DNA of 64,000 bases, taken from IMG/VR virus record IMGVR_UViG_3300018080_005419. One strand, written 5' to 3'. The stretch's first letter is position 1; each line of letters starts with the position of its first letter. The notes below the pieces were generated by a model that ran no database searches, was not told where the DNA came from, and was given only the letters and a program-made list of their open reading frames with translations. The position numbers were made by a program, and so were the translations under genes. The DNA comes from a virus. Below, piece by piece: positions 4,585 to 62,288 of this stretch.

Positions 4585-5637
4585 TTAAGGTGTTTCGGGA
4601 GGATTTTCTTGTATTTCTTCAACGTACTTCTCTACAACTTGAGGAGCCGGAACATCAGACAGATCAAGTTTAAGAGCTTTGTCACGTAATGCATCAACCT
4701 GTTTTGCTGCCAGACTAAGCAATTTCTCCACAAAGTCTGATTCATAGTTTCTTAAAAGACCAACCAAAGTCTCATTTAACTCTTGATTTTCCAGTATATT
4801 CATCAACGCAGTTTCAATATCATTAATTGCTCTCAGTTTAAAATCAGGAGATCTATACGAGAGAGTTAGCGAATCTGTAATTTGACGCCCCAGTCTCGAC
4901 AATATATCATAAAGATCTATATCAACCACATCAGAACCACGCATTTTATCACAAATAGCTTTCCCGATCATTCCAATTATTACAGTCTCGGGTTTCGACC
5001 GCATTTCTTCTAGCTTATCATATGCACCCTGAACCTCTACTTGTTGCATATCAAGAGAATTAAGAGCTTGAGCATCATTTATTTGTTTAATAGCATCGAA
5101 TACTTTTTGAGCACTTTCTTCTACAATTGCGTCTTTTGCCAGTTCTTTTGCTGCTTTAAGAATTCTTGCTGTTTTCTGATTAGTTACAGATTGGGGTCTT
5201 TCTACTGGCGCTACTTCTGCTTCCACTTCTTCTTCTTCAGTTTTAAGAGGAGACCCAAGAACTTCGTCTATTTTTTGCATTAATGCTGCTACCTCACTTG
5301 AATTAAATTGAGGCTTTGTTTGCGACTTATCTTTTGTTGAGGGAGCAGATGTAACCGGGTTTTTCCAATGTACTCTGACACCTAATTGATGAATATCGTC
5401 GTTAGGACCAATTAAAGAAGGTTGTACCCATGCAGCCATATATTGTTCTCTAAGTGTATTTCCACTACGATCTTTAATCACAGAAAATTCAACATCCCAA
5501 TCAAAAGAAGACTCGGGAACTTCTAATGTATATTCGGCTCCATGTCTTAAAGCAAGCTCATCGTTAAGAGGAGCCAGAATTTCCTGTTTGCAGAAAACCC
5601 AGTGTCTATTTGAAGCTTTTCGTCTGCGTAGTGCCAT
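4585..5637 (-). CDS. Hypothetical protein
   Basis: 350-aa ORF with GGAG RBS, co-oriented with neighbours. Confidence 0.75.
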   Translation of the reverse strand: MALRRRKASNRHWVFCKQEILAPLNDELALRHGAEYTLEVPESSFDWDVEFSVIKDRSGNTLREQYMAAWVQPSLIGPNDDIHQLGVRVHWKNPVTSAPSTKDKSQTKPQFNSSEVAALMQKIDEVLGSPLKTEEEEVEAEVAPVERPQSVTNQKTARILKAAKELAKDAIVEESAQKVFDAIKQINDAQALNSLDMQQVEVQGAYDKLEEMRSKPETVIIGMIGKAICDKMRGSDVVDIDLYDILSRLGRQITDSLTLSYRSPDFKLRAINDIETALMNILENQELNETLVGLLRNYESDFVEKLLSLAAKQVDALRDKALKLDLSDVPAPQVVEKYVEEIQENPPETP

Positions 5638-6180: not shown

Positions 6181-6765
6181 CTAAAATAGCTGGAATAATA
6201 AAACTTTTTTGAAAAGATTAGAAAGAATTCCGCCAGTTTTCAATTCTTCTGTATTATTATCTTTAGGAATAACATCGGTACTGGATTTTCCTTTTGCTAC
6301 ATTAAGTCCCAAAGATTCTGCTAAATCATTAATAGAATTTTCACCCTTAATAAAAACATCTACTCCAGGAAGCATATTTTCAATTTGTTTAGCTCTTTTA
6401 ACTCTTCCTGTACTGACAATATATGGAATATCTTGATGCTCTTGGTCTAGATATTTAGCTAAAGAAAATCCATCAGCATTTTTTCCTTCACCTTCTAATC
6501 CCAAATCGATAACAATTGCTTTAACTTTATCTCCATTTCCATATTCTTCAATTCTCTTTTTTGCTTCACTTACATTTTTAGCGCTGACAATTTCAAATAT
6601 TTCGCCTCTAGAATTGAATAGTCTTTTAATCAATTCAACAGCTTCTTCTTTATCATCAACAACAATAAAAACACCTTCTCTTTCGTGTATTCTAATTCTT
6701 TTAGAGGCACGGAAATATTTCTGAAGTTCACTGTTCATTTGGGAAAAGTTTGTTTTGTTTTGCAT
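6181..6765 (-). CDS. Response-regulator receiver-domain protein
   Basis: IVVDD, IVIDLGL (phospho-Asp), VSTG, FIKG receiver motifs. Confidence 0.8.
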   Translation of the reverse strand: MQNKTNFSQMNSELQKYFRASKRIRIHEREGVFIVVDDKEEAVELIKRLFNSRGEIFEIVSAKNVSEAKKRIEEYGNGDKVKAIVIDLGLEGEGKNADGFSLAKYLDQEHQDIPYIVSTGRVKRAKQIENMLPGVDVFIKGENSINDLAESLGLNVAKGKSSTDVIPKDNNTEELKTGGILSNLFKKVLLFQLF

Positions 6766-43426: not shown

Positions 43427-44122
43427 TTATTTGCAATTTTCAATTTTGCTATAAATAATATCCAATTGTCCCTCCATCACTTTATCTAATTTATATATCG
43501 CCTTTTTAACTCTTTCATCTTTGACTCTATTTTCTATAAAATTATATGTCCTAATCTTTTCCGCTCTTCCAGATTTTCCAATTTGTTTTTGACGATTAGA
43601 TTTTCGACTATTCTTTTCAGTATCTATTTGTTTTTCTTGTACTCTTGCTTTTAATAATTCCAAAGCCTTTATTTTATTTAAACTTTGTGATCTTCCCCTA
43701 GTACAAACCGCTATTGTTTTAGTTGGTAAATGCTTAACTCTGACTCCTGTATCTGATGTATTCCTATGTTGTCCTCCTGGACCTTGACCTCGGATAAAAT
43801 CAACTTCAACATCATTCATATTAAAATTTTCTTGAGTTTTATTAATAGGAAGGACAGCAACGGTAATTGTAGATGTATGCCGACGACCTTTTGATTCAGT
43901 AGGTGGTACTCTTTGAAGACGATGAATGCCAGACTCGTATTTCACAAGTCTTTCAATATCGCCATCAATTTCGCAAATTATTTCAGAATCAGATACATCA
44001 AGGAGGGAGAGTTTGATTTGTTCTTGTTTGCAATACTTATCATACATCCTTAACATTTCAAGGATAAATTGTTTTGCATCATCTCCACCAACACCTGCGC
44101 GAATTTCAAGAATAGCTCTCAT
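43427..44122 (-). CDS. prfA: Peptide chain release factor 1-like protein lacking N-terminal domain 1
   Basis: ESGIHRLQRVPPTE (PxT), GPGGQ, RSQ..NK..AL..L, EKIRTYNF; ATG at 44122 after GGAG. Confidence 0.85.
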   Translation of the reverse strand: MRAILEIRAGVGGDDAKQFILEMLRMYDKYCKQEQIKLSLLDVSDSEIICEIDGDIERLVKYESGIHRLQRVPPTESKGRRHTSTITVAVLPINKTQENFNMNDVEVDFIRGQGPGGQHRNTSDTGVRVKHLPTKTIAVCTRGRSQSLNKIKALELLKARVQEKQIDTEKNSRKSNRQKQIGKSGRAEKIRTYNFIENRVKDERVKKAIYKLDKVMEGQLDIIYSKIENCK

Positions 44123-44225
44123 TTGAGAATCTCCTTTCGAAAGACAATATTTCACTACGACAAAACTAAATTTAGATAGTTTTGCTAATAGCAGTCAGTC
44201 ATCGAAAGGAGAAATTTAGCCACTT

Positions 44226-53598: not shown

Positions 53599-54334
53599 TC
53601 AAAACTCCCCATTCTTTTCCTTTATTTCTAACAATAATTCCTTTTCTACTTAAATACAATTGACGATTATGTTCATGTAAAGGTCTGGTTCTTCCTGGTC
53701 TGCTGCTTCTTGAATGATATAAATGAACACATTGAGCATCTGTTTGAACATAATGACAATTCAAATCCAATAACCTATCTACAAAATCCCGATCATCAAA
53801 AGCCATTCCTATAAAATCTTCGTCATATCCCCTAATTTTTTCATAATGTGATCGATGCATGGAAAATAAAAATGGAAGTTTCACATTTAAATTTCCTAAT
53901 TTATTATAGATTTCTATTAAATTATTACCACTAGATTCTAACGCATTTAAAAATAATTTATTATCATCTTTTCCTTGAGGTATTCCCAAAGCCAATTTAT
54001 CATCTAAAACCGGATCTATAAGTTTATTTAGTACATTTCCAATATGATAAATTTCTGCACAAGATAAAATAATAATATCACCAGAAGATCGCTTAAATCC
54101 TATGTTAAAAGCAAAACCAGGAACTCTCCATTTTTCTCCATCTAAATTTCTGTGACCTGTAAATATATACTTACAACCATATTCTTTTGCAATTTGTTCT
54201 GTTTGATCATGAGTACCATCATTTATAACAATTACCTCAAGATCATGTTTTAATTTTTGTTTCTTTATTGTTGGAAGAGTGTGTTTGAGAAGATGATCCC
54301 TTTTAAATGTTGTAATGAGCAAACTAATTAACAT
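53588..54334 (-). CDS. GT2-family glycosyltransferase
   Basis: LITTFKR, VINDGT, FNIG, GYDEDF.G.AFDDRDF, HLYH; start trimmed to exclude the tRNA. Confidence 0.85.
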   Translation of the reverse strand: MLISLLITTFKRDHLLKHTLPTIKKQKLKHDLEVIVINDGTHDQTEQIAKEYGCKYIFTGHRNLDGEKWRVPGFAFNIGFKRSSGDIIILSCAEIYHIGNVLNKLIDPVLDDKLALGIPQGKDDNKLFLNALESSGNNLIEIYNKLGNLNVKLPFLFSMHRSHYEKIRGYDEDFIGMAFDDRDFVDRLLDLNCHYVQTDAQCVHLYHSRSSRPGRTRPLHEHNRQLYLSRKGIIVRNKGKEWGVLNEK

Positions 54335-54363
54335 AATTTTAAATCTTTCTGACGAACTATTTT

Positions 54364-54449
54364 TGGTAGCCAAGGTGGGATTCGAACCCACATGGGATTT
54401 CTCCCACTTGTTCTTGAGACAAGCGCGTATCCCGTTCCGCCACTTGGCC
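54364..54449 (-). tRNA. tRNA-Leu(CAA)
   Basis: CTTGT-CTCAAGA-ACAAG; long variable arm; CCA. Confidence 0.95.
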
Positions 54450-54459
54450 TAAAATCATT

Positions 54460-54972
54460 CTAAGTCATAATCCATCTTTGCCATGTCTTATGTGTACGAA
54501 GATCAATAGCAGTAATAATCATAACATCACGCTGAGGAATAAATGGACGACAACGAAGCTTCATACCAGCTTCCTCAGGTGTTCTGTTATCCTTTGCACA
54601 ATTGCACTTTCTACACGCAGCTACAACATTTCCCCACTTATGCTTTCCTCCACGACTAGTAGGAAAAACATGATCTATTGTACCGCTCTTAGAAGTCAAA
54701 CGAGTACCACAATATTGACATTCGAAACTATCACGACGAAGCACATTTTCCTTGCTAATCGAAATACTTTTAAAAGGCACACGAACATAAGTTATTAGAA
54801 TCAAAACAGTAGGAAGCTTAAAAACAGCGCCACCTACCAATTTGATATCATGGTATTCATCGTGTCCAGATGGCTTTTTAGCTTTACCATTAACCATCTG
54901 CATTACAGCTTCTTTCCAGGTAATAACATCGTGTACTTCATAACTTGCATTCAGCAATAACACACGCTTCAT
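54460..54972 (-). CDS. HNH endonuclease (McrA/HNH_5 type)
   Basis: VLLLNASYE, NVLRRD..CQYCG, TIDHV.P.SRGG..W.NVVAAC..CN..K. Confidence 0.9.
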   Translation of the reverse strand: MKRVLLLNASYEVHDVITWKEAVMQMVNGKAKKPSGHDEYHDIKLVGGAVFKLPTVLILITYVRVPFKSISISKENVLRRDSFECQYCGTRLTSKSGTIDHVFPTSRGGKHKWGNVVAACRKCNCAKDNRTPEEAGMKLRCRPFIPQRDVMIITAIDLRTHKTWQRWIMT

Positions 54973-55042
54973 TTTATCATCCTCCGTTCATATTTCTCCT
55001 TTATAATTTAGCGTATTTATTTAATTTTTTCAAGTATTAAAT

Positions 55043-55116
55043 TGGCAGGAGCGGAGAGAATCGAACTCCCAGCTAAAGGTTTGGAGCCTTTCATGTTGCC
55101 ATTACACCACGCTCCT
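55043..55116 (-). tRNA. tRNA-Trp(CCA)
   Basis: AAAGG-CTCCAAA-CCTTT; G73; CCA. Confidence 0.95.
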
Positions 55117-55143
55117 TTTTATATTTTAATTCCTTTGCTTTTG

Positions 55144-55935
55144 TTAATCTACGTGCTTCTTTTTGGCAATAATCTCATCTAAAATTTTTAAATCGCTTAA
55201 ATATGCTTTATCGAAATAAGGTAATAACTCACCCCAAGAATCTGTTTTAGATAACACCAAATACGCATTTGCTCTTGCCTTATTTACGCCCCAATGCATA
55301 GCAGAATTGCCAGGACGACGATTGGGACTTAAATGAATACCATGTACAGGTCTTTCTCTATTGGGCGTAATTTTTCCGAAATAATACGTTACGATTCTAC
55401 ATATAAGTTCTTCGTCACTCATTTTGCCATATTGTCGAAAATATTCTTGCCCAATCCATTCAATATCAATTTTATCAAAATATCTCTTTGTGTCTACGCA
55501 ATGCAATCCTGTCATTCTTCCTGTGCGCCTGAGCATATTACTATAAGGAAGACGAGTTTCTTTCATAATACGACGATGAATATCTCCAAGCGATTCTTTT
55601 GTATCTCTTAAAATTAGAATATCAATATCTCCAATATAAGTTAACGGTTGTCTTGTTTTTGGAGCAACCACCCATCGCAAAGAATTAAAAATCGGGCTAA
55701 CTTTTGATTGCGGCCTTAAAAATTTTGCAGGAATTTGACGTAATGCCCATCTACTACCAAAATGATTCCTTGCAATTGAAATTAAAGGTTTGTGAGTCTT
55801 TTCAAATTGAATCTTATCATCTAAATAAATTTCCATTGTCGATTGTTTATATGTCTCTAAAGCAGCAGCAATATAAGGAATAACAAATCGATAATATTTC
55901 TGATTTGATACTGTTAAAAAGTGAACATTGTTCAA
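55144..55935 (-). CDS. Putative glycosyltransferase-like protein
   Basis: YIGDIDILI DxD motif. Confidence 0.5.
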   Translation of the reverse strand: MNNVHFLTVSNQKYYRFVIPYIAAALETYKQSTMEIYLDDKIQFEKTHKPLISIARNHFGSRWALRQIPAKFLRPQSKVSPIFNSLRWVVAPKTRQPLTYIGDIDILILRDTKESLGDIHRRIMKETRLPYSNMLRRTGRMTGLHCVDTKRYFDKIDIEWIGQEYFRQYGKMSDEELICRIVTYYFGKITPNRERPVHGIHLSPNRRPGNSAMHWGVNKARANAYLVLSKTDSWGELLPYFDKAYLSDLKILDEIIAKKKHVD

Positions 55936-55947
55936 TTTAACATCCTT

Positions 55948-56631
55948 TCAGATTTTTTGATAGCCTAGCTTTTCAAATACAACATCAGATATGTTATCAT
56001 TTACAATTTGTATTTGTGTTGAAGTTAAATCAAATGTTTGCATGTTTAAATATTTTTTTCTTTGTTCTTCAGTAAACACATTTGATTGACCGACTTTTTT
56101 CACATTACGCCAACTTGTTGTTGCCTTATTTAATCCGAAATTTCTTTCTATTTTTTGTAATGCTCCCTTGAATCCATTTATTTTGATTAGATGCTCATAT
56201 TGAATTCTAATTATTAAAGGAAGTTCTCTCTTTGGAGATATAAACCAATTTAGAAAGAATTCATTATATAGGCGACACAAATTTTGCAAACTAAAATTTG
56301 AAACTTCACCGAGAACATTTTTTGACGTTATAATTTCATCACCAGTTAATCCATTAATATTACAAATTTCAAATTCTAAATGTCTTCCTCCCATATCTAC
56401 ACAATTTCTTTGTATACTTTCAATCCATGAATACGGATTTTTACTAATCAAAATATGGAAAAAATTGTCTTCGAAGTTGAAAATATTAGGATTCACAGAG
56501 TGCTTCCAAAAATATCCTCTTTTGACATGATTCTTTATTGTTACATTTTTAAAATTAACTCTTAAAAGTTGTTCTAAATATTCTGTTCCACTTCGTTGCA
56601 GCCCTATCACAATTCCGGAAAATTCATTCAT
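55948..56631 (-). CDS. Sulfotransferase-like protein
   Basis: GLQRSGTEYL 5'-PSB-like motif; KNPYSWI.S; IQYEHL. Confidence 0.7.
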   Translation of the reverse strand: MNEFSGIVIGLQRSGTEYLEQLLRVNFKNVTIKNHVKRGYFWKHSVNPNIFNFEDNFFHILISKNPYSWIESIQRNCVDMGGRHLEFEICNINGLTGDEIITSKNVLGEVSNFSLQNLCRLYNEFFLNWFISPKRELPLIIRIQYEHLIKINGFKGALQKIERNFGLNKATTSWRNVKKVGQSNVFTEEQRKKYLNMQTFDLTSTQIQIVNDNISDVVFEKLGYQKI

Positions 56632-56749
56632 TTTATCTCTCTAAAATTCAAATCAAACGACTTACCATTATAATACTTTCTTAGCTATAAAAACCAATTT
56701 ATCTAAAAATTATAAATAACATCCTATACACCACGATCCTTTCTATATT

Positions 56750-56965
56750 TTAACAAGAATTAACTACTTTGTTAGCCAACGCATTAAGAGCAGCACTGAG
56801 ACAAATACTTGGATCACCGCCCCAAAAAGAAAATAATTGTTCATCTGTCACTACAACTCCACATCCTTTACATTTATTAACTGAATCTGCCGATGGAATT
56901 TTTGAAGTTACACATTTGTATATGTATAATTCTGGGTTATATTCCCATCGATGTGAAATGTACAT
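56750..56965 (-). CDS. Hypothetical protein
   Basis: 71-aa ORF with RBS directly after the tRNA fragment. Confidence 0.5.
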   Translation of the reverse strand: MYISHRWEYNPELYIYKCVTSKIPSADSVNKCKGCGVVVTDEQLFSFWGGDPSICLSAALNALANKVVNSC

Positions 56966-56980
56966 ATTAGTCCTTCCTCT

Positions 56981-57012
56981 AAATGCGCTCTCCCAAATTG
57001 AGCTATACCCAG
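56981..57012 (-). pseudogene. tRNA 5'-half fragment (Pro-like C1 start)
   Basis: CTGGGTA-TA-GCTC-AATTTGGGA-GAGC-GC, then no anticodon or T arm. Confidence 0.65.
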
Positions 57013-57019
57013 TTAAATT

Positions 57020-57238
57020 TTAGGGATAAATAATATTTCCCTGTTCTTCTTGCTTTTTAACATCTCTCCACGAATACCAAATACTGCTATATTTCCAAGA
57101 AGCCTCAACAGTATAATTTCCCCCACATTTAAGTTTCTTATAATACACATCTTTTTCTGCTTTTTTATATCCTTCTTCAAATGCTTCTTTTATTAATTCA
57201 GAAGCAAATTTAGCATATTGCGGCCCTCTTGCTCCCAT
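57020..57238 (-). CDS. Hypothetical protein
   Basis: GGAG RBS, MGARGPQY; ORF-track extension into the tRNA removed. Confidence 0.6.
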   Translation of the reverse strand: MGARGPQYAKFASELIKEAFEEGYKKAEKDVYYKKLKCGGNYTVEASWKYSSIWYSWRDVKKQEEQGNIIYP

Positions 57239-57257
57239 AATCAACTCCTTTAAATTT

Positions 57258-57380
57258 TGGCGGAGAGGACAGGAATTGAACCTGCACATCCGGATCCTAT
57301 AAGATTTAAAAGGAACCATTTTTGCCGGAAAGCGAATGGTAGATCAATTCCGGCGCTCTAACCATTTAAGCTACCTCTCC
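57258..57380 (-). tRNA. tRNA of undetermined isotype with a 47-nt insertion in the anticodon loop
   Basis: GGAGAGG/CCTCTCC acceptor, G73-CCA, D and T arms normal; CCGGA/TCCGG stem closes a 54-nt loop. Confidence 0.75.
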
Positions 57381-57447
57381 AAAAAAACCATTTCGAATCC
57401 TTTTATTTTATTATATCTTTGATGTTCATTGAAATTATCATTAAATT

Positions 57448-57527
57448 TGGCGGGATGTACGGGAATTGAACCCGCGATTCCTTAGCCTTGACAGGGCTAC
57501 GTGCAGAAACCACTACACCAACATCCC
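57448..57527 (-). tRNA. tRNA-Asp(GUC)
   Basis: TAGCC-CTGTCAA-GGCTA; G73; 7-nt variable region. Confidence 0.92.
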
Positions 57528-57535
57528 ATATTTTT

Positions 57536-57625
57536 TGGTGAGGATGGAGAGATTTGAACTCTCATGGCCTTTTTGCGACCACCACATTCTGAGTGTGGCC
57601 CGTATACCAATTCTAGCACATCCCC
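57536..57625 (-). tRNA. tRNA-Leu(CAG)
   Basis: CCACA-CTCAGAA-TGTGG; long variable arm. Confidence 0.95.
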
Positions 57626-57627
57626 AA

Positions 57628-57864
57628 TTAGACGTTCAGCAAATGTAACATTGCTGAAAACGTCTTTAATAGATCTTCTTTGCGAACATGAGGACCACGA
57701 AAAACTTTGCCCTCTGAAACAATTGAAAGACGAATAGCTTCTTCTCCATCATAATCAACTACTTTTGTAGCTCTTAAATAAGGAGCAACTTCAATATACT
57801 CCTGATTACTTCCGTCACGATAAACCTTTGTTTCTTCAGAAATTGCATAACCTAATAAATCCAT
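57628..57864 (-). CDS. Hypothetical protein
   Basis: AAGGAG RBS; 78 aa. Confidence 0.65.
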   Translation of the reverse strand: MDLLGYAISEETKVYRDGSNQEYIEVAPYLRATKVVDYDGEEAIRLSIVSEGKVFRGPHVRKEDLLKTFSAMLHLLNV

Positions 57865-57953
57865 ATCGTTCTCCTTTGTAACCAGGACAATTCCCGGTTA
57901 TGACAAGAACGATTATGCGAAGAAAAAACCTCCATAAAAACAAGAAAAATTTT

Positions 57954-58039
57954 TGGTGCGGTAGAGAGGATTCGAACCTCTATAGGATTTCTCCCACATG
58001 GCCCTCAACCATGCGCGTATCCCTTTCCGCCACTGCCGC
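57954..58039 (-). tRNA. tRNA-Leu(GAG)
   Basis: CATGG-TTGAGGG-CCATG; long variable arm. Confidence 0.93.
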
Positions 58040-58049
58040 ACAATCAACA

Positions 58050-58382
58050 TTATACTACCATTACAAATAATCTGGCCATTTCCCAACCTCTATCTGTAGG
58101 CTCAAATCTGGCAATAGGCGAATAATAATTTTTATTCTCTGCAAAATGAGGATCTAAATGTCCCTGATCCAAAATATCTCTGATGGTTATATTTTCATAA
58201 ACAAGAATTTTTCTTCCTTCATAATTTATACATCTCGGATATCTCACAATCATAACAAGATAAGACCCAATGTGTTCGTATTTTTCAATTTCAAAATCTC
58301 GCGGATCAGGATTTGGCAATTCTTTTTGAGTTACGCTTGGAGCATCATATGTGCTCCTTGAGCCTATTAAACAAACTCCCAT
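58050..58382 (-). CDS. Hypothetical phage protein
   Basis: GGAG RBS, MGVCLIGSRS; extension into tRNAs removed. Confidence 0.7.
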   Translation of the reverse strand: MGVCLIGSRSTYDAPSVTQKELPNPDPRDFEIEKYEHIGSYLVMIVRYPRCINYEGRKILVYENITIRDILDQGHLDPHFAENKNYYSPIARFEPTDRGWEMARLFVMVV

Positions 58383-58400
58383 AATTCTCTCCTTAAAAAT

Positions 58401-58486
58401 TGGTGCTCTCGACAGGATTCGAACCTGTATAGGATTTCTCCCGCCAGTTCCTAAGACTGGTGCGTATTCCTTTCCGCCACGAGAGC
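58401..58486 (-). tRNA. tRNA-Leu(UAG)
   Basis: CCAGT-CTTAGGA-ACTGG; long variable arm. Confidence 0.95.
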
Positions 58487-58493
58487 ATTTTAG

Positions 58494-58570
58494 TGGTGGG
58501 CAGGGGCGGATTTGGACCGCCGACCTCCACATTTTCAGTGTGGCACTCTACCGGACTGAGTTACCTGCCC
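58494..58570 (-). tRNA. tRNA-Phe(GAA)
   Basis: CCACA-CTGAAAA-TGTGG; atypical T-loop TCCAAAT. Confidence 0.92.
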
Positions 58571-58576
58571 TTATTT

Positions 58577-58669
58577 TGGTCTGCAGGGAGGGAGTTGAAC
58601 CCCCAATGTTTACCCGAAGGGACCAGTTTTACAAACTGGCACGACACAACCGATAGTCGTCTCCTGCAG
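58577..58669 (-). tRNA. tRNA-Tyr(GUA), atypical (C1:G72, A8, 5-bp D stem)
   Basis: CCAGT-TTGTAAA-ACTGG; long variable arm; CTGCAGG/CCTGCAG acceptor. Confidence 0.85.
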
Positions 58670-58673
58670 AAAT

Positions 58674-58750
58674 TGGTGGACCGGACAAGACTTGAACTTG
58701 CAGCCTACTCCTAGCCAAGGAGTCGCTCTCCCAATTAGAGCTACCGGCCC
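58674..58750 (-). tRNA. tRNA-Ala(GGC)
   Basis: G3:U70; ACTCC-TTGGCTA-GGAGT (U37). Confidence 0.9.
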
Positions 58751-58767
58751 AAAATAAATACGCTAAA

Positions 58768-58780
58768 TTGTCAAAGAGCC
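58768..58780 (-). promoter_or_regulatory. boxA-like antitermination motif
   Basis: GGCTCTTTGACAA vs rrn boxA TGCTCTTTAACA. Confidence 0.55.
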
Positions 58781-58792
58781 ACATTTAAATCT

Positions 58793-58869
58793 TGGTGTAC
58801 CCGACAGGAATCGAACCTGCAACATCCTCCATGCAAAAGAGGTACTCTCCCAGATTGAGTTACGGGCAC
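58793..58869 (-). tRNA. tRNA-Ala(UGC)
   Basis: G3:U70; CCTCT-TTTGCAT-GGAGG. Confidence 0.93.
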
Positions 58870-58880
58870 ATTTTATATTT

Positions 58881-58969
58881 TGGTCGGTGGAGGAGGATTT
58901 GAACCTCCGATCTCCTTGCGGCCTCTTCCTTATCAGGGAAGCGCTCTGACCAGACTGAGCTACCCACCG
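58881..58969 (-). tRNA. tRNA-Ile(GAU) with an unusual 16-nt variable arm
   Basis: CTTCC-CTGATAA-GGAAG; variable region AGGCCGCAAGGAGATC. Confidence 0.9.
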
Positions 58970-58991
58970 ATTATCGCTCCTTAATTCCAAC

Positions 58992-59205
58992 AAAAAAAGC
59001 CAACCGTTTTTCGGCTGGCGTTCGAGGGTTTTCTGTTTTTGCGTTTCTTTAGTTTACAGAACCTCCTCGTTCGCCAGCTAGCCACAGGGCTGCTGCCATA
59101 ATATCGGCAAAGGGCAAATAAAGTCGGTTCTCTTTATGATTCACGGTTCTTTCTCCAAATAAAAGTATCAAAGCTATTTCTACCACTTATAGACAACAAA
59201 GTCAA
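58992..59205 (-). promoter_or_regulatory. Multi-codon transcription attenuator heading the tRNA array
   Basis: TTGACT(59205-59200)-17-TAGAAA; terminator GCCAGCCG-AAAAA-CGGTTGGC-T7; antiterminator GCTGGCG.AA.CGAGG/CCTCG.AA.CGCCAGC overlapping the terminator 5' arm. Confidence 0.85.
59049..59144 (-). CDS. Leader peptide MNHKENRLYLPFADIMAAALWLAGERGGSVN (GTG start)
   Basis: GGAG RBS 9 nt upstream; codons 8-23 match the downstream tRNA anticodons. Confidence 0.8.
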   Translation of the reverse strand: MNHKENRLYLPFADIMAAALWLAGERGGSVN

Positions 59206-59213
59206 GGAAAATT

Positions 59214-59402
59214 TTAAATATTTTCTCTTTTTTCTCTATAAAATATTTCACCGCAGTCATAACACCATACAATATCAATGTATTTCCAAAGCAAAAAACC
59301 CTTAAATTTAAACCCAACTCCATGATAACAAGGTTTATGCAACTTACATATACAATGGGCCCAACATTTAATATAAGCTAAAAATCTTCTAACCGATATC
59401 AT
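59214..59402 (-). CDS. Small Cys/His hypothetical protein
   Basis: 62-aa ORF with CYDC. Confidence 0.55.
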   Translation of the reverse strand: MISVRRFLAYIKCWAHCICKLHKPCYHGVGFKFKGFLLWKYIDIVWCYDCGEIFYREKRENI

Positions 59403-59884
59403 TCTTCTTTACCCAATTTATTTCTATCCTCTTCTAATACATATTTATCTATTTGCGTATTTCCCCAGACTTTTACTTGATCAATAATTGCAGTTTTATC
59501 GTCAGTATTCATTTTCTTAATTGTCTTAAAGTCTATCTCTCCAAAATCACCCCTCATAATCCAAGAGACATTTTTACCGTCTTCTGAAAAACCATAAATA
59601 ATTGGCTCAGTTGCTTTTATTGGCTTATTAGATGACCATACTGCCTCTTTAGCAATTACTACAAATTCTATAGTGCCCTGAGGAGTAAAACTTTGAATTG
59701 CTATACCCTTCATATTCGTCTCAATTGGCTTCGGGGGCGATTCTTTTTTCTTTTTTGTATCTGGTTCTTCTGCTTTTATTTTTTCGCAAATAAAATCATA
59801 ATTGGTAAATCCTATAATGACAGCAACAATAAAAATAAATCCTAGAGTAACCGATCTAAAGGTAAATAGTTCATACCATTTCAT
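59399..59884 (-). CDS. Single-TM periplasmic protein, LptC-like
   Basis: N-terminal TM, linker, then beta-rich pattern (IAKEA..P.I..F..G..W..RGDFG..V.VWGN.QI); by-eye resemblance only. Confidence 0.45.
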   Translation of the reverse strand: MKWYELFTFRSVTLGFIFIVAVIIGFTNYDFICEKIKAEEPDTKKKKESPPKPIETNMKGIAIQSFTPQGTIEFVVIAKEAVWSSNKPIKATEPIIYGFSEDGKNVSWIMRGDFGEIDFKTIKKMNTDDKTAIIDQVKVWGNTQIDKYVLEEDRNKLGKEE

Positions 59885-59922
59885 TGTTTTTTCCTTTTTG
59901 TTAATTTTGCTTGTTCAGCATA

Positions 59923-60729
59923 TCATTTCCCATTTAAAGCCAAAGATAACTGTAAATACTCAGCCGTTAATCTTGCAATAGGAGTATAAACTATTTCTGT
60001 GGGCGTTCCTTCATATTTTATTAACGGATCTCTTCTCCAAATCCAAGCAGTAGGTTTTGCAAAATTTAAAGGTACAACTTTTTTGCATTTTGTCCTTTTA
60101 ATGTTTTCGAGTTTATTCATTGCAGGATATTTATCTATTTTGCAATGCTTTTTTCCGATGTATGAAAAATATGCGTTATGCTCATACATCCATCTCATCG
60201 ACCAAGAAGGTTTAGATCCTTTAGCCAAATATGCAGTGAACATAGTATTAATATGTTGTCTCAGAGAAGAAATATATTTAACAGCAAATCCAAATGCCCA
60301 ACCTAATTTTGTTAAATATAAAGCTGATTCCCATTTCTTTTTTAAATAATCTGGAACTTTTAATTTAGAACCATTATCGATAGCAAATTTTAAACCGAGA
60401 GGGCCAGCGCTAGATTGAGGTTTTTCTATATACCACAATCCCTTAATATTGACGGACTCTTTCCATTCATCATCTACTTTAATGGGAGCAAATGTTCTGG
60501 CGTCTCTTCCTACATCGATAATTGTTTGTACATATCTTTCTGCAAGTTCGGCTAATTCTATATCTCCTATCTTATAACAGGAAGCAATAAGAGGGGTATT
60601 CCAGGCCATTCCATCTATATATTCGTTGTATTTATAAGGCTTTAGACAATAGAAATAGCCATTATCTCGATTATAAGCATCCAATACTTCTTGTCTGACT
60701 GTTTTTAACTGATCTGATATTTCTAACAC
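59923..60729 (-). CDS. Hypothetical protein
   Basis: 268-aa ORF with RBS. Confidence 0.7.
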   Translation of the reverse strand: MLEISDQLKTVRQEVLDAYNRDNGYFYCLKPYKYNEYIDGMAWNTPLIASCYKIGDIELAELAERYVQTIIDVGRDARTFAPIKVDDEWKESVNIKGLWYIEKPQSSAGPLGLKFAIDNGSKLKVPDYLKKKWESALYLTKLGWAFGFAVKYISSLRQHINTMFTAYLAKGSKPSWSMRWMYEHNAYFSYIGKKHCKIDKYPAMNKLENIKRTKCKKVVPLNFAKPTAWIWRRDPLIKYEGTPTEIVYTPIARLTAEYLQLSLALNGK

Positions 60730-61532: not shown

Positions 61533-62288
61533 TTATTTTAATGCCGACTTATTAAAAACATAAATAGAAGGAGGCTCGTTTTTTCCTTCATCTAATTTTA
61601 CAGCTTTTAATTTTTTAGTTTTTGCTTCTGATATTGCTTCATCTATTGCATCTGGATCGCCTGCATAAGGAAGATCATCAGCAATATATACATCTTCTAA
61701 TTTTATACGCCTTACCTTCACTTCTTCAATCCTTCCAGTTTGTGTAAATTGAGCAGCCCATTCTTTATCTGTTGACCAATAGTTCCCATCTTTATTCCCT
61801 GTATATTCTCCTCTATATATTTCTATTTCTTTTGCTATTTTTACTCTCTTTTTGGTATAATCTGCTAAAAACTGAAGAGCTATATTGTCTGAAGCAAATT
61901 TTATTTCTTCTACTAGTTTTATTGATTTTGGATTATATATTACAACTCCTCCAAAACTACCCTCGTCTCTTAGCCCGTCAATCTTATTTTTACGCATAAT
62001 TTGATCAAAATCGTCTCTATGCATTAACCTCTCAAACTTATTATCTCTCCAAAGTGCAAAGTCTTCTGGTTTATCTAAATCTAAAATTCTAGCATTTGGA
62101 TCTAATTTAAATTTGAGAACGACACCTTCATCTTCGGCAAAATCAGCATAGTTGCTTTGAGCCAATTCAGGATTTGTTGCTGTATAGAATCCTTTGCCAA
62201 AATACCCCTTGGTGCTTTTATCTATATCTACGCCTTTTTGTACAATATCTTTGGCGCTTTGTATGTCTGTGCCGTGATATAAATACAT
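61533..62288 (-). CDS. ADP-ribosyltransferase-fold protein, apparently two tandem ART-like domains
   Basis: Domain 1 LYHGT..YFGKGFYTA..A..YA; domain 2 IYRG..YWSTDKEWA.QF..E..IYVF. Confidence 0.65.
   Translation of the reverse strand: MYLYHGTDIQSAKDIVQKGVDIDKSTKGYFGKGFYTATNPELAQSNYADFAEDEGVVLKFKLDPNARILDLDKPEDFALWRDNKFERLMHRDDFDQIMRKNKIDGLRDEGSFGGVVIYNPKSIKLVEEIKFASDNIALQFLADYTKKRVKIAKEIEIYRGEYTGNKDGNYWSTDKEWAAQFTQTGRIEEVKVRRIKLEDVYIADDLPYAGDPDAIDEAISEAKTKKLKAVKLDEGKNEPPSIYVFNKSALK

Follow-up and report, generated by a model that had tools for sequence, protein, structure and literature searches.

Does a phage tRNA array carry at its head a device that reads the demand for the very tRNAs it encodes? 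The purpose of phage tRNA genes is debated: they may serve codon compensation, make up for the loss of host tRNAs or help the phage to escape defences that cleave tRNAs. The question is raised here by the window, a 64,000-nt stretch of viral DNA (32.5% G+C, nearly all genes on the minus strand) that is part of a 280-kb contig from a giant, uncultured phage and in which a short open reading frame (ORF) and a terminator lie directly above an array of tRNA genes. An earlier note, made from the DNA letters, had read this ORF as a leader peptide that samples the anticodons of the array. Our analysis leads to a reading to which we assign a probability of roughly 0.7, judged from sequence and folding models: the locus would be a multivalent Yanofsky-type leader-peptide attenuator that heads a phage tRNA operon and feeds back on tRNA supply. 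The phage would probably make the tRNAs of the array when ribosomes read a core set of leader codons slowly.

The leader locus runs along the minus strand from 59205 to 58992 and comprises a promoter, the sequence GGAG, a spacer of 8 nt, a GTG start codon with a 31-codon ORF, an antiterminator, and a terminator placed ~30 nt before the first tRNA. The putative promoter (59177-59205) consists of a -35 element TTGACT at 59205-59200, extended to TTGACTTT, a 17-nt spacer, and a -10 element TAGAAA at 59182-59177. The -10 element is without the usual final T, and a generic promoter scan did not list the site; it was assigned by its match to the consensus and by the recurrence of its class before leaders and tRNA. 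Three copies of the motif TTGACTTT-N13-16-TANAWW were counted in the window (0.26 expected by chance), all of them intergenic and on the minus (coding) strand: before the multi-codon leader considered here, before a Thr leader (47251) and before tRNA-Val (49030). The tRNA-Val(UAC) gene itself (49030-48899, minus strand) has its own promoter, TTGACT-17-TAGAAT, and no leader, and the core of the multi-codon leader has no Val codons. The Shine-Dalgarno sequence GGAG (59153-59156) precedes the GTG at 59144 by 8 nt, and the ORF (59049-59144, minus strand) encodes the peptide VNHKENRLYLPFADIMAAALWLAGERGGSVN and ends with TAA at 59051-59049; with its ribosome-binding site and start codon it is a candidate translated ORF. 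The predicted intrinsic terminator (58992-59019, minus strand) is formed by GCCAGCCG-AAAAA-CGGTTGGC at 59019-58999 followed by T7, which as RNA reads GCCAGCCG-AAAAA-CGGUUGGC and then U7, and has an 8-bp stem of -13.0 kcal/mol. Promoter, GGAG-GTG ORF and terminator were all found where the earlier note had placed them; the terminator, which it had called strong, is moderate at -13 kcal/mol.

The unit proposed to be controlled (54364-58969, minus strand) contains 11 assignable tRNAs and one tRNA with an inserted anticodon loop, interspersed with small protein genes. The order is Ile-GAU, Ala-UGC, Ala-GGC, Tyr, Phe, Leu-UAG, Leu-GAG, Leu-CAG, Asp, the insert-bearing tRNA, Trp, and Leu-CAA. Because no promoter fits into the ~30-nt gap between the terminator and tRNA-Ile-GAU, which starts at 58969, array transcripts from the leader promoter must cross the terminator. 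This terminator is the sole terminator-like site on the minus strand within 54000-60500, and the absence of further predicted ones points to co-transcription of the array. Among GenBank phages none is similar to the region beyond its tRNAs, and IMG/VR gave no match to a 32-mer from the leader, to the two upstream proteins, or to a tRNA-Ile motif that the window has in common with a metagenomic relative, L001.

Several other features of the array were observed. The insert-bearing tRNA (57380-57258, minus strand) scores 55 bits in Rfam and carries a 47-51-nt insert in its anticodon loop that forms its own hairpin; ARAGORN, with introns allowed, calls it Leu(UAG) despite its short variable arm, and the splice point would decide between UAG, UGG and UGA as its anticodon. 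The tRNA-Ile(GAU) of the window (58881-58969, minus strand) has an unusually long extra arm, for 89 nt in total, and shares 88% identity with its counterpart in L001 (1171-1258). A conserved protein without a Pfam family, phrog_13501 (110-120 aa), is encoded at 58050-58382 (minus strand) in the window and at 2540-2887 in L001; it occurs in 141 metagenomic stretches, and wherever tRNAs could be detected there its gene sits inside or next to tRNA arrays of large phages.

Codons of the leader and tRNAs of the array

The core of the leader comprises codons 8-23 (59123-59076, minus strand; peptide LYLPFADIMAAALWLA). Their sequence is as the earlier note had quoted it, and our codon tally bears out its count: with standard wobble, the 11 downstream tRNAs read 14 of these 16 codons, and every one of the 11 has a codon in the core. 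None of 14 flanking codons falls in the array set, GTG1 and GTA30 matching only the tRNA-Val that lies far downstream with its own promoter. Such a cluster is rare by several measures. The 11-tRNA set reads 31% of the codons in the long ORFs of the window, and not one of 16,589 16-codon windows drawn from these ORFs had 14 matches or 10 tRNAs covered. When the leader was shuffled 200,000 times, 14 matches were never obtained and all 11 tRNAs were covered once, while the other five frames of the leader, including those on the reverse strand, gave at most 7 matches. Coverage of the whole ORF, which involves no chosen window, was also 11/11 (P=4e-4), a value that 2 of 18,323 real windows reach. 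A chance codon match is unlikely.

How finely the leader distinguishes isoacceptors is less sharply defined by these data. A segment score at the amino-acid level gave P=0.0014. When synonymous codons were redrawn for an unchanged peptide, the match had P=0.023 in the window and was not significant in L001, so sensing may act at the amino-acid level. The correspondence between four different Leu codons and the four Leu tRNAs, as the earlier note had pointed out, is one-to-one, and it is supported by P=0.005, TTA accounting for 45% of Leu codons. Enrichment for array codons across the entire ORF is modest (z=1.0 at the amino-acid level, 1.8 at the codon level). The window's own signal is one of clustering and coverage, not of overall enrichment, and the borders of the core were chosen post hoc. 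Since the core codons are those read by the tRNAs of the array, slow decoding of the leader would amount to negative feedback on the supply of these tRNAs, host and phage copies together.

Alternative RNA structures and the proposed switch

Folding of the free leader RNA gave a structure more stable than that of shuffled sequences (z=-2.8), and the minimum-free-energy fold holds a three-helix antiterminator at 59078-59014 (minus strand; -23.5 kcal/mol). In it GCUGGCG..CGAGG..GUUCUG pairs with CAGAA..CCUCG..CGCCAGC, giving the helices GCUGGCG/CGCCAGC, CGAGG/CCUCG and GUUCUG/CAGAA(A/C). The antiterminator and terminator have one strand in common, the antiterminator segment CGCCAGC overlapping the 5' arm of the terminator, GCCAGCC, and the stop codon of the ORF sits in the antiterminator loop. 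An upstream hairpin, CAGCAGCC-CUGU-GGCUAGCUG (59075-59095, minus strand; -11.2 kcal/mol), would compete for the antiterminator sequence GCUG(GC). The pairing of the end of the ORF with an arm overlapping the terminator, the competing hairpin and the Yanofsky-type geometry that the earlier note had described are all recovered by folding as mutually exclusive structures, and this geometry recurs in relatives of the phage.

A structured, promoter-proximal leader with both a terminator and an antiterminator would also suit a T-box-like element or another riboswitch that binds tRNA or a ligand directly. A T-box, which requires no ORF, itself binds uncharged tRNA; it resembles the phage element in attenuating transcription according to tRNA status, and differs in that the phage element has an ORF and gives no match to a T-box model. 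Within 54000-60000 no Rfam family but tRNA was significant at E values up to 1, and the frame of the ORF and the position of its stop codon are conserved, neither of which a riboswitch would need. We therefore regard a riboswitch as scarcely credible.

For a leader-peptide attenuator, the outcome depends on where the ribosome stands when the alternative arms are transcribed. Equilibrium folding of the full-length leaders describes a finely balanced switch in the window and always favors the terminator in L001, so that a kinetic assumption is needed, as for trpL, in which the terminator is likewise the more stable structure. Because equilibrium folding of full leaders is uninformative in this respect, we used a snapshot fold instead, taking the RNA just before the 3' arm of the terminator is made and placing a ribosome footprint at each codon in turn. 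In these snapshots an A site anywhere from codon 1 to codon 19-20 allowed the antiterminator to form (P at least 0.85), and one at codons 21-29 prevented it; with the ribosome on the stop codon, the model has the outer helix re-form around it, a result that we judged to be sterically unrealistic. The earlier proposal that a stall at any core codon leads to read-through thus agrees with this in silico model as far as codon ~19-20 and departs from it for codons 21-23: a stall at TGG21, CTA22 or GCT23 lies outside the modeled read-through zone and would more likely favor termination. The sensing zone is probably narrower than 16 codons. The models further suggest that the default state is read-through and that termination requires a ribosome keeping pace with the polymerase.

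These elements can be assembled into the following scheme. Transcription would begin at the TTGACT-17-TAGAAA promoter, and a ribosome would initiate at the GTG at 59144 and trail the RNA polymerase. If decoding is fast, the ribosome would have reached codon 20 or later, or the stop codon, by the time the 3' arm of the antiterminator is made; it would then cover GCUGGCG..CGAGG..GUUCUG, the terminator hairpin would form, and most transcripts would end at 58992. If instead the ribosome is waiting for an aminoacyl-tRNA at a core codon, the antiterminator would form first and sequester the 5' arm of the terminator, its -23.5 kcal/mol outcompeting the -13.0 kcal/mol of the terminator, and the polymerase would read on into the tRNA genes. 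In this scheme we infer that the leader is translated, that ribosome and polymerase are coupled, that the element responds to tRNA supply and that all 11 tRNAs are co-transcribed.

Leaders of other phage tRNA arrays

Relatives of the locus were located via proteins encoded in or near the array. Two metagenomic loci, L001 and L108, keep the layout of ORF, antiterminator and terminator at the head of their arrays. In L001, a 24-kb JGI contig, a promoter-like TTGCAA-16-TACTAT and GGAG precede an ORF that ends in KENLLIADSYLLLSSYQSLVLVGHVFDIDALGGTP; its TGA stop lies inside an antiterminator arm, CCUGACGGC. The partner of this arm is the 5' arm of a terminator, GGCCGUCAGG-AAAC-CCUGGCGGUC, which is followed by U9. 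Downstream are tRNA-Tyr and 15 more tRNAs. The L108 leader, MNTKSLDNLAYYSIFLVLAGRDMALHIAHIFDIFALKRTP, has the same arm as L001, matching its terminator, and an identical leader was present in two other samples. Its array encodes Ala-UGC, two Tyr, Phe, Leu-CAG, Ile, Asp, His, Leu-CAA, two Leu-GAG, Leu-UAA and Leu-UAG. Just upstream of the L108 leader cassette, at 6290-6420 (plus strand), we also observed a promoter-like TTGTCG..TATAAT, then a structured RNA segment of ~100 nt and a U-run hairpin. No leader was found at loci L005-L009 and L103-L107.

The array proteins of L001 and L108 are 55-69% identical to those of the window, and the peptide cores of the three leaders cannot be aligned; the parts of the peptide that persist are an N-terminal KEN and a C-terminal GG(S/T) or RTP. 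This bears on the possibility that the ORF is a gene for a small hydrophobic peptide, such as a membrane peptide or toxin, with its own terminator, the tRNAs being expressed via read-through. The core LYLPFADIMAAALWLA is indeed hydrophobic. However, its 16 residues are too few to span a membrane, the cores of L001 and L108 contain Asp and His, and a core that varies in length (16, 28 and 31 codons) and is unconserved where the neighboring proteins are 55-69% identical is not what such a gene would lead one to expect. A peptide gene of this kind is very improbable.

What the cores do follow, as an attenuator reading its own tRNAs would predict, is the content of the array. By hand tally from the translations, the fraction of core residues that have a tRNA in their own array is 14/16 (88%) in the window, 24/28 (86%) in L001 and 25/31 (81%) in L108, and each of the three leaders is matched best by its own array. 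For example, the core of the window has Trp and five Ala codons, and its array has tRNA-Trp and both tRNA-Ala species; the core of L001 has four Ser codons, ATA, TTA, GTA and CAT, and its array has four tRNA-Ser, Ile-UAU, Leu-UAA, Val and His; the leader of L108 has two His and five Ala codons, and its array has tRNA-His and tRNA-Ala-UGC. For L001 and L108, the end of the matched core and the onset of the antiterminator block lie no more than 1 codon apart (codons 35/36 and 36/37). Matching at the level of isoacceptors, clear in the window, is imperfect in the relatives: L108 has no CTG despite its tRNA-Leu-CAG, and no tRNA of its array matches its Ser, ATA and GCC codons. A group permutation test on the window, L001 and L108 gave p=0.010 for a set of leaders that are related and not fully independent. 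When just the window and L001 are compared by exchanging whole ORFs, discrimination is weak: each leader's coverage of the array it was swapped to is still 12/15 and 10/11.

A wider set was obtained by a profile search with another array protein, which yielded 35 IMG/VR loci, and by a detector based on architecture only, which called for an ORF with its stop at a segment able to pair with the 5' arm of a terminator (hairpin plus U-run) and for a tRNA no more than 420 nt downstream. The detector matched the window, L001, L108, L129, L115 (variant L118) and L036. The L129 leader, which contains LKCKEIRVKSLCSKRHLSWLLSVS and ends in LKRTAP, precedes tRNAs for Lys, Cys, Asn, Leu (three), Ser and Trp, and that of L115, with many Asn, Tyr, Cys, Glu and Met residues, lies before tRNAs for Tyr, Glu, Asn, Tyr and Cys. 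Six leaders were then compared using whole ORFs and each genome's own background. The z scores for own arrays sum to 15.3 for amino acids and 14.0 for codons, compared with 6.6 and 6.7 for the best full derangement, and among the 720 possible assignments of leaders to arrays the true one scored highest (p=0.0014, the minimum attainable). Co-variation of leader codons with tRNA content in related phages, which the earlier note had suggested looking for, is thus seen in both tests, and in arrays with different tRNA sets the leader cores differ too, each following its own array. A further leader in L115 (9767-9915, plus strand) was observed that encodes MYRNLYINEEMCNNEIINNIDDTSQLTEK; its end, AAUUGACUG, and the 5' arm of the terminator are complementary, and the leader precedes a small gene and tRNA-Met, after which comes the Tyr/Glu/Asn block.

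Two more explanations can be weighed against these comparisons. The first is that the hairpins are a constitutive leaky terminator or an element for processing or stability of the tRNA precursor, that the ORF is incidental, and that its codon match reflects chance together with hydrophobic bias. Translation of the leader is a sequence prediction, tRNA sets and short GC-rich structured segments both favor Leu, Ala, Ile and Phe codons, and our codon-match scans gave false positives near p=2e-4. Yet a Shine-Dalgarno ORF with its stop at the antiterminator recurs in L001, L108, L129 and L115 despite their differing sequences, the other frames and reverse strand of the window leader stay at or below the 7 matches given above, and the test of own against swapped arrays is positive. 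We consider this explanation unlikely. The second, to which we give slightly less credence still, is a real translation-coupled attenuator that reports only general translation capacity, that is, ribosome availability or coupling, with codon identity being irrelevant. It draws on the antiterminator being the default fold of the free RNA, such that any delay or failure of translation gives read-through, and on the modest whole-ORF enrichment in the window. It leaves unexplained why leaders track their own arrays, why the rare residues Trp, Cys and His occur only where a matching tRNA follows, and why Leu codons and Leu tRNAs of the window correspond one-to-one. A codon-specific attenuator remains the reading that we prefer.

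Some candidates from the scans were rejected. A codon-match scan hit in L036/L038 proved to be an out-of-frame ORF inside an HNH gene (the L036 case is one of the false positives mentioned above). Matches at blocks of one or two tRNAs were of low complexity and were also given by the reverse-strand control, and a Thr match in L048 was given no weight. A first scan based on terminators returned mostly ordinary gene terminators.

A possible case outside this group was found in L021, an unrelated, GC-rich phage. Two short Shine-Dalgarno ORFs, at 74-211 and 5471-5587 in the minus-strand view, end 9-13 nt before tRNA blocks and have promoter-like TTGAC..GATCGA motifs upstream. One has a tail, LSFLCSLSSLFLYSNSGWRL, preceding tRNAs for Asn, Trp, Phe, Leu (four), Tyr, Ser and Cys, and the other a tail, LPSPSSPSPSERPSSPPQR, preceding tRNAs for Ser, Pro, Pro, Ser and Ser. 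The tails, which make up the C-terminal halves of the ORFs, spell the tRNA blocks that follow them with p=1e-7 and 1e-8, the best control at a multi-tRNA block reaching 1.8e-4. No U-run terminator was found at the two ORFs, and a different read-out may therefore be in use. A broader proposal would be that giant phages widely carry 'roster' attenuators, in which leader codons list the anticodons of the block, sense exhausted or cleaved host tRNAs and switch on replacements; we offer this tentatively and regard it as rather doubtful.

Known attenuators and a second, Thr-rich leader

Enterobacterial attenuators that respond to more than one amino acid are known: the ilvL leader of ilvGMEDA contains regulatory codons for Ile, Leu and Val, and thrL for Thr and Ile. 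The phage leader resembles them in its short promoter-proximal ORF, its regulatory codons for more than one amino acid, its mutually exclusive antiterminator and terminator, and the deciding role proposed for ribosome position. It differs in that ilvL and thrL control biosynthetic enzymes and read two to three amino acids, whereas the phage leader would control tRNAs and covers seven amino acids and 11 isoacceptors. In addition, it is phage-borne, and its ORF, unlike theirs, runs through the 5' arm of the antiterminator and stops in its loop. The E. coli pheST operon, controlled by leader-peptide attenuation through pheM, is similar in that a gene of the translation apparatus is governed by the decoding of cognate codons; there, however, the gene encodes a synthetase, a single amino acid is read, and the system is chromosomal. 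By analogy, the mechanism suggested here is one known from ilvL, thrL and pheST, and its use on tRNA genes was not found described: a full-text literature search returned no published account of leader-peptide control of phage tRNA genes.

Recent work on phage tRNAs as a counter to tRNA-targeting defences provides a rationale for a phage to encode its own tRNAs when those of the host are cleaved, and thus a possible selective reason for the element (PMC10264068, PMC11555353). These papers appear to concern tRNA function and escape through the anticodon loop, not transcriptional control of arrays. That the leader serves as a counter to anticodon nucleases is speculation. Should the attenuator reading be correct, the phage would regulate its array tRNAs by need, leader-peptide attenuation would reach beyond biosynthetic and synthetase genes to the genes for tRNAs, and the leader would be by far the most multivalent attenuator known. 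Such leaders could also act as an annotation key for tRNA-array transcription units in uncultured phages.

A second predicted attenuator in the window is a Thr-rich leader heading the operon of tRNA-Thr(UGU). Its region (47251-47050, minus strand) begins with a promoter, TTGACT-17-TATATT, of the same class as that of the multi-codon leader. The ORF (47177-47103, minus strand) encodes MNFSVITTTIRTTTTKLNKNELRW, in which 7 of 24 codons specify Thr (P=5e-5). Alternate pairing is possible among AUCACCAC, GGUGGUGA and UCACCACC, with a terminator downstream of them. Rfam searches with the Thr, His, Leu and Trp leader families gave no matches for either leader of the window. The tRNA-Thr(UGU) gene (45015-44729, minus strand) lies ~2 kb downstream in the operon and has a 212-nt intron in its anticodon loop, as called by ARAGORN with introns allowed; the Rfam group I intron model gave no match there. 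Further downstream in the same operon, at 43427-44155 (minus strand), is a shortened, 242-aa class-I release-factor homologue that consists of the C-terminal part of the PCRF domain and the RF-1 domain. On the other side of the array, a 251-aa protein encoded at 61533-62288 (minus strand) has weak N-terminal Pfam matches to DUF3990, PARP and the Exotoxin A catalytic domain, all below cut-off, and may be an ADP-ribosyltransferase.
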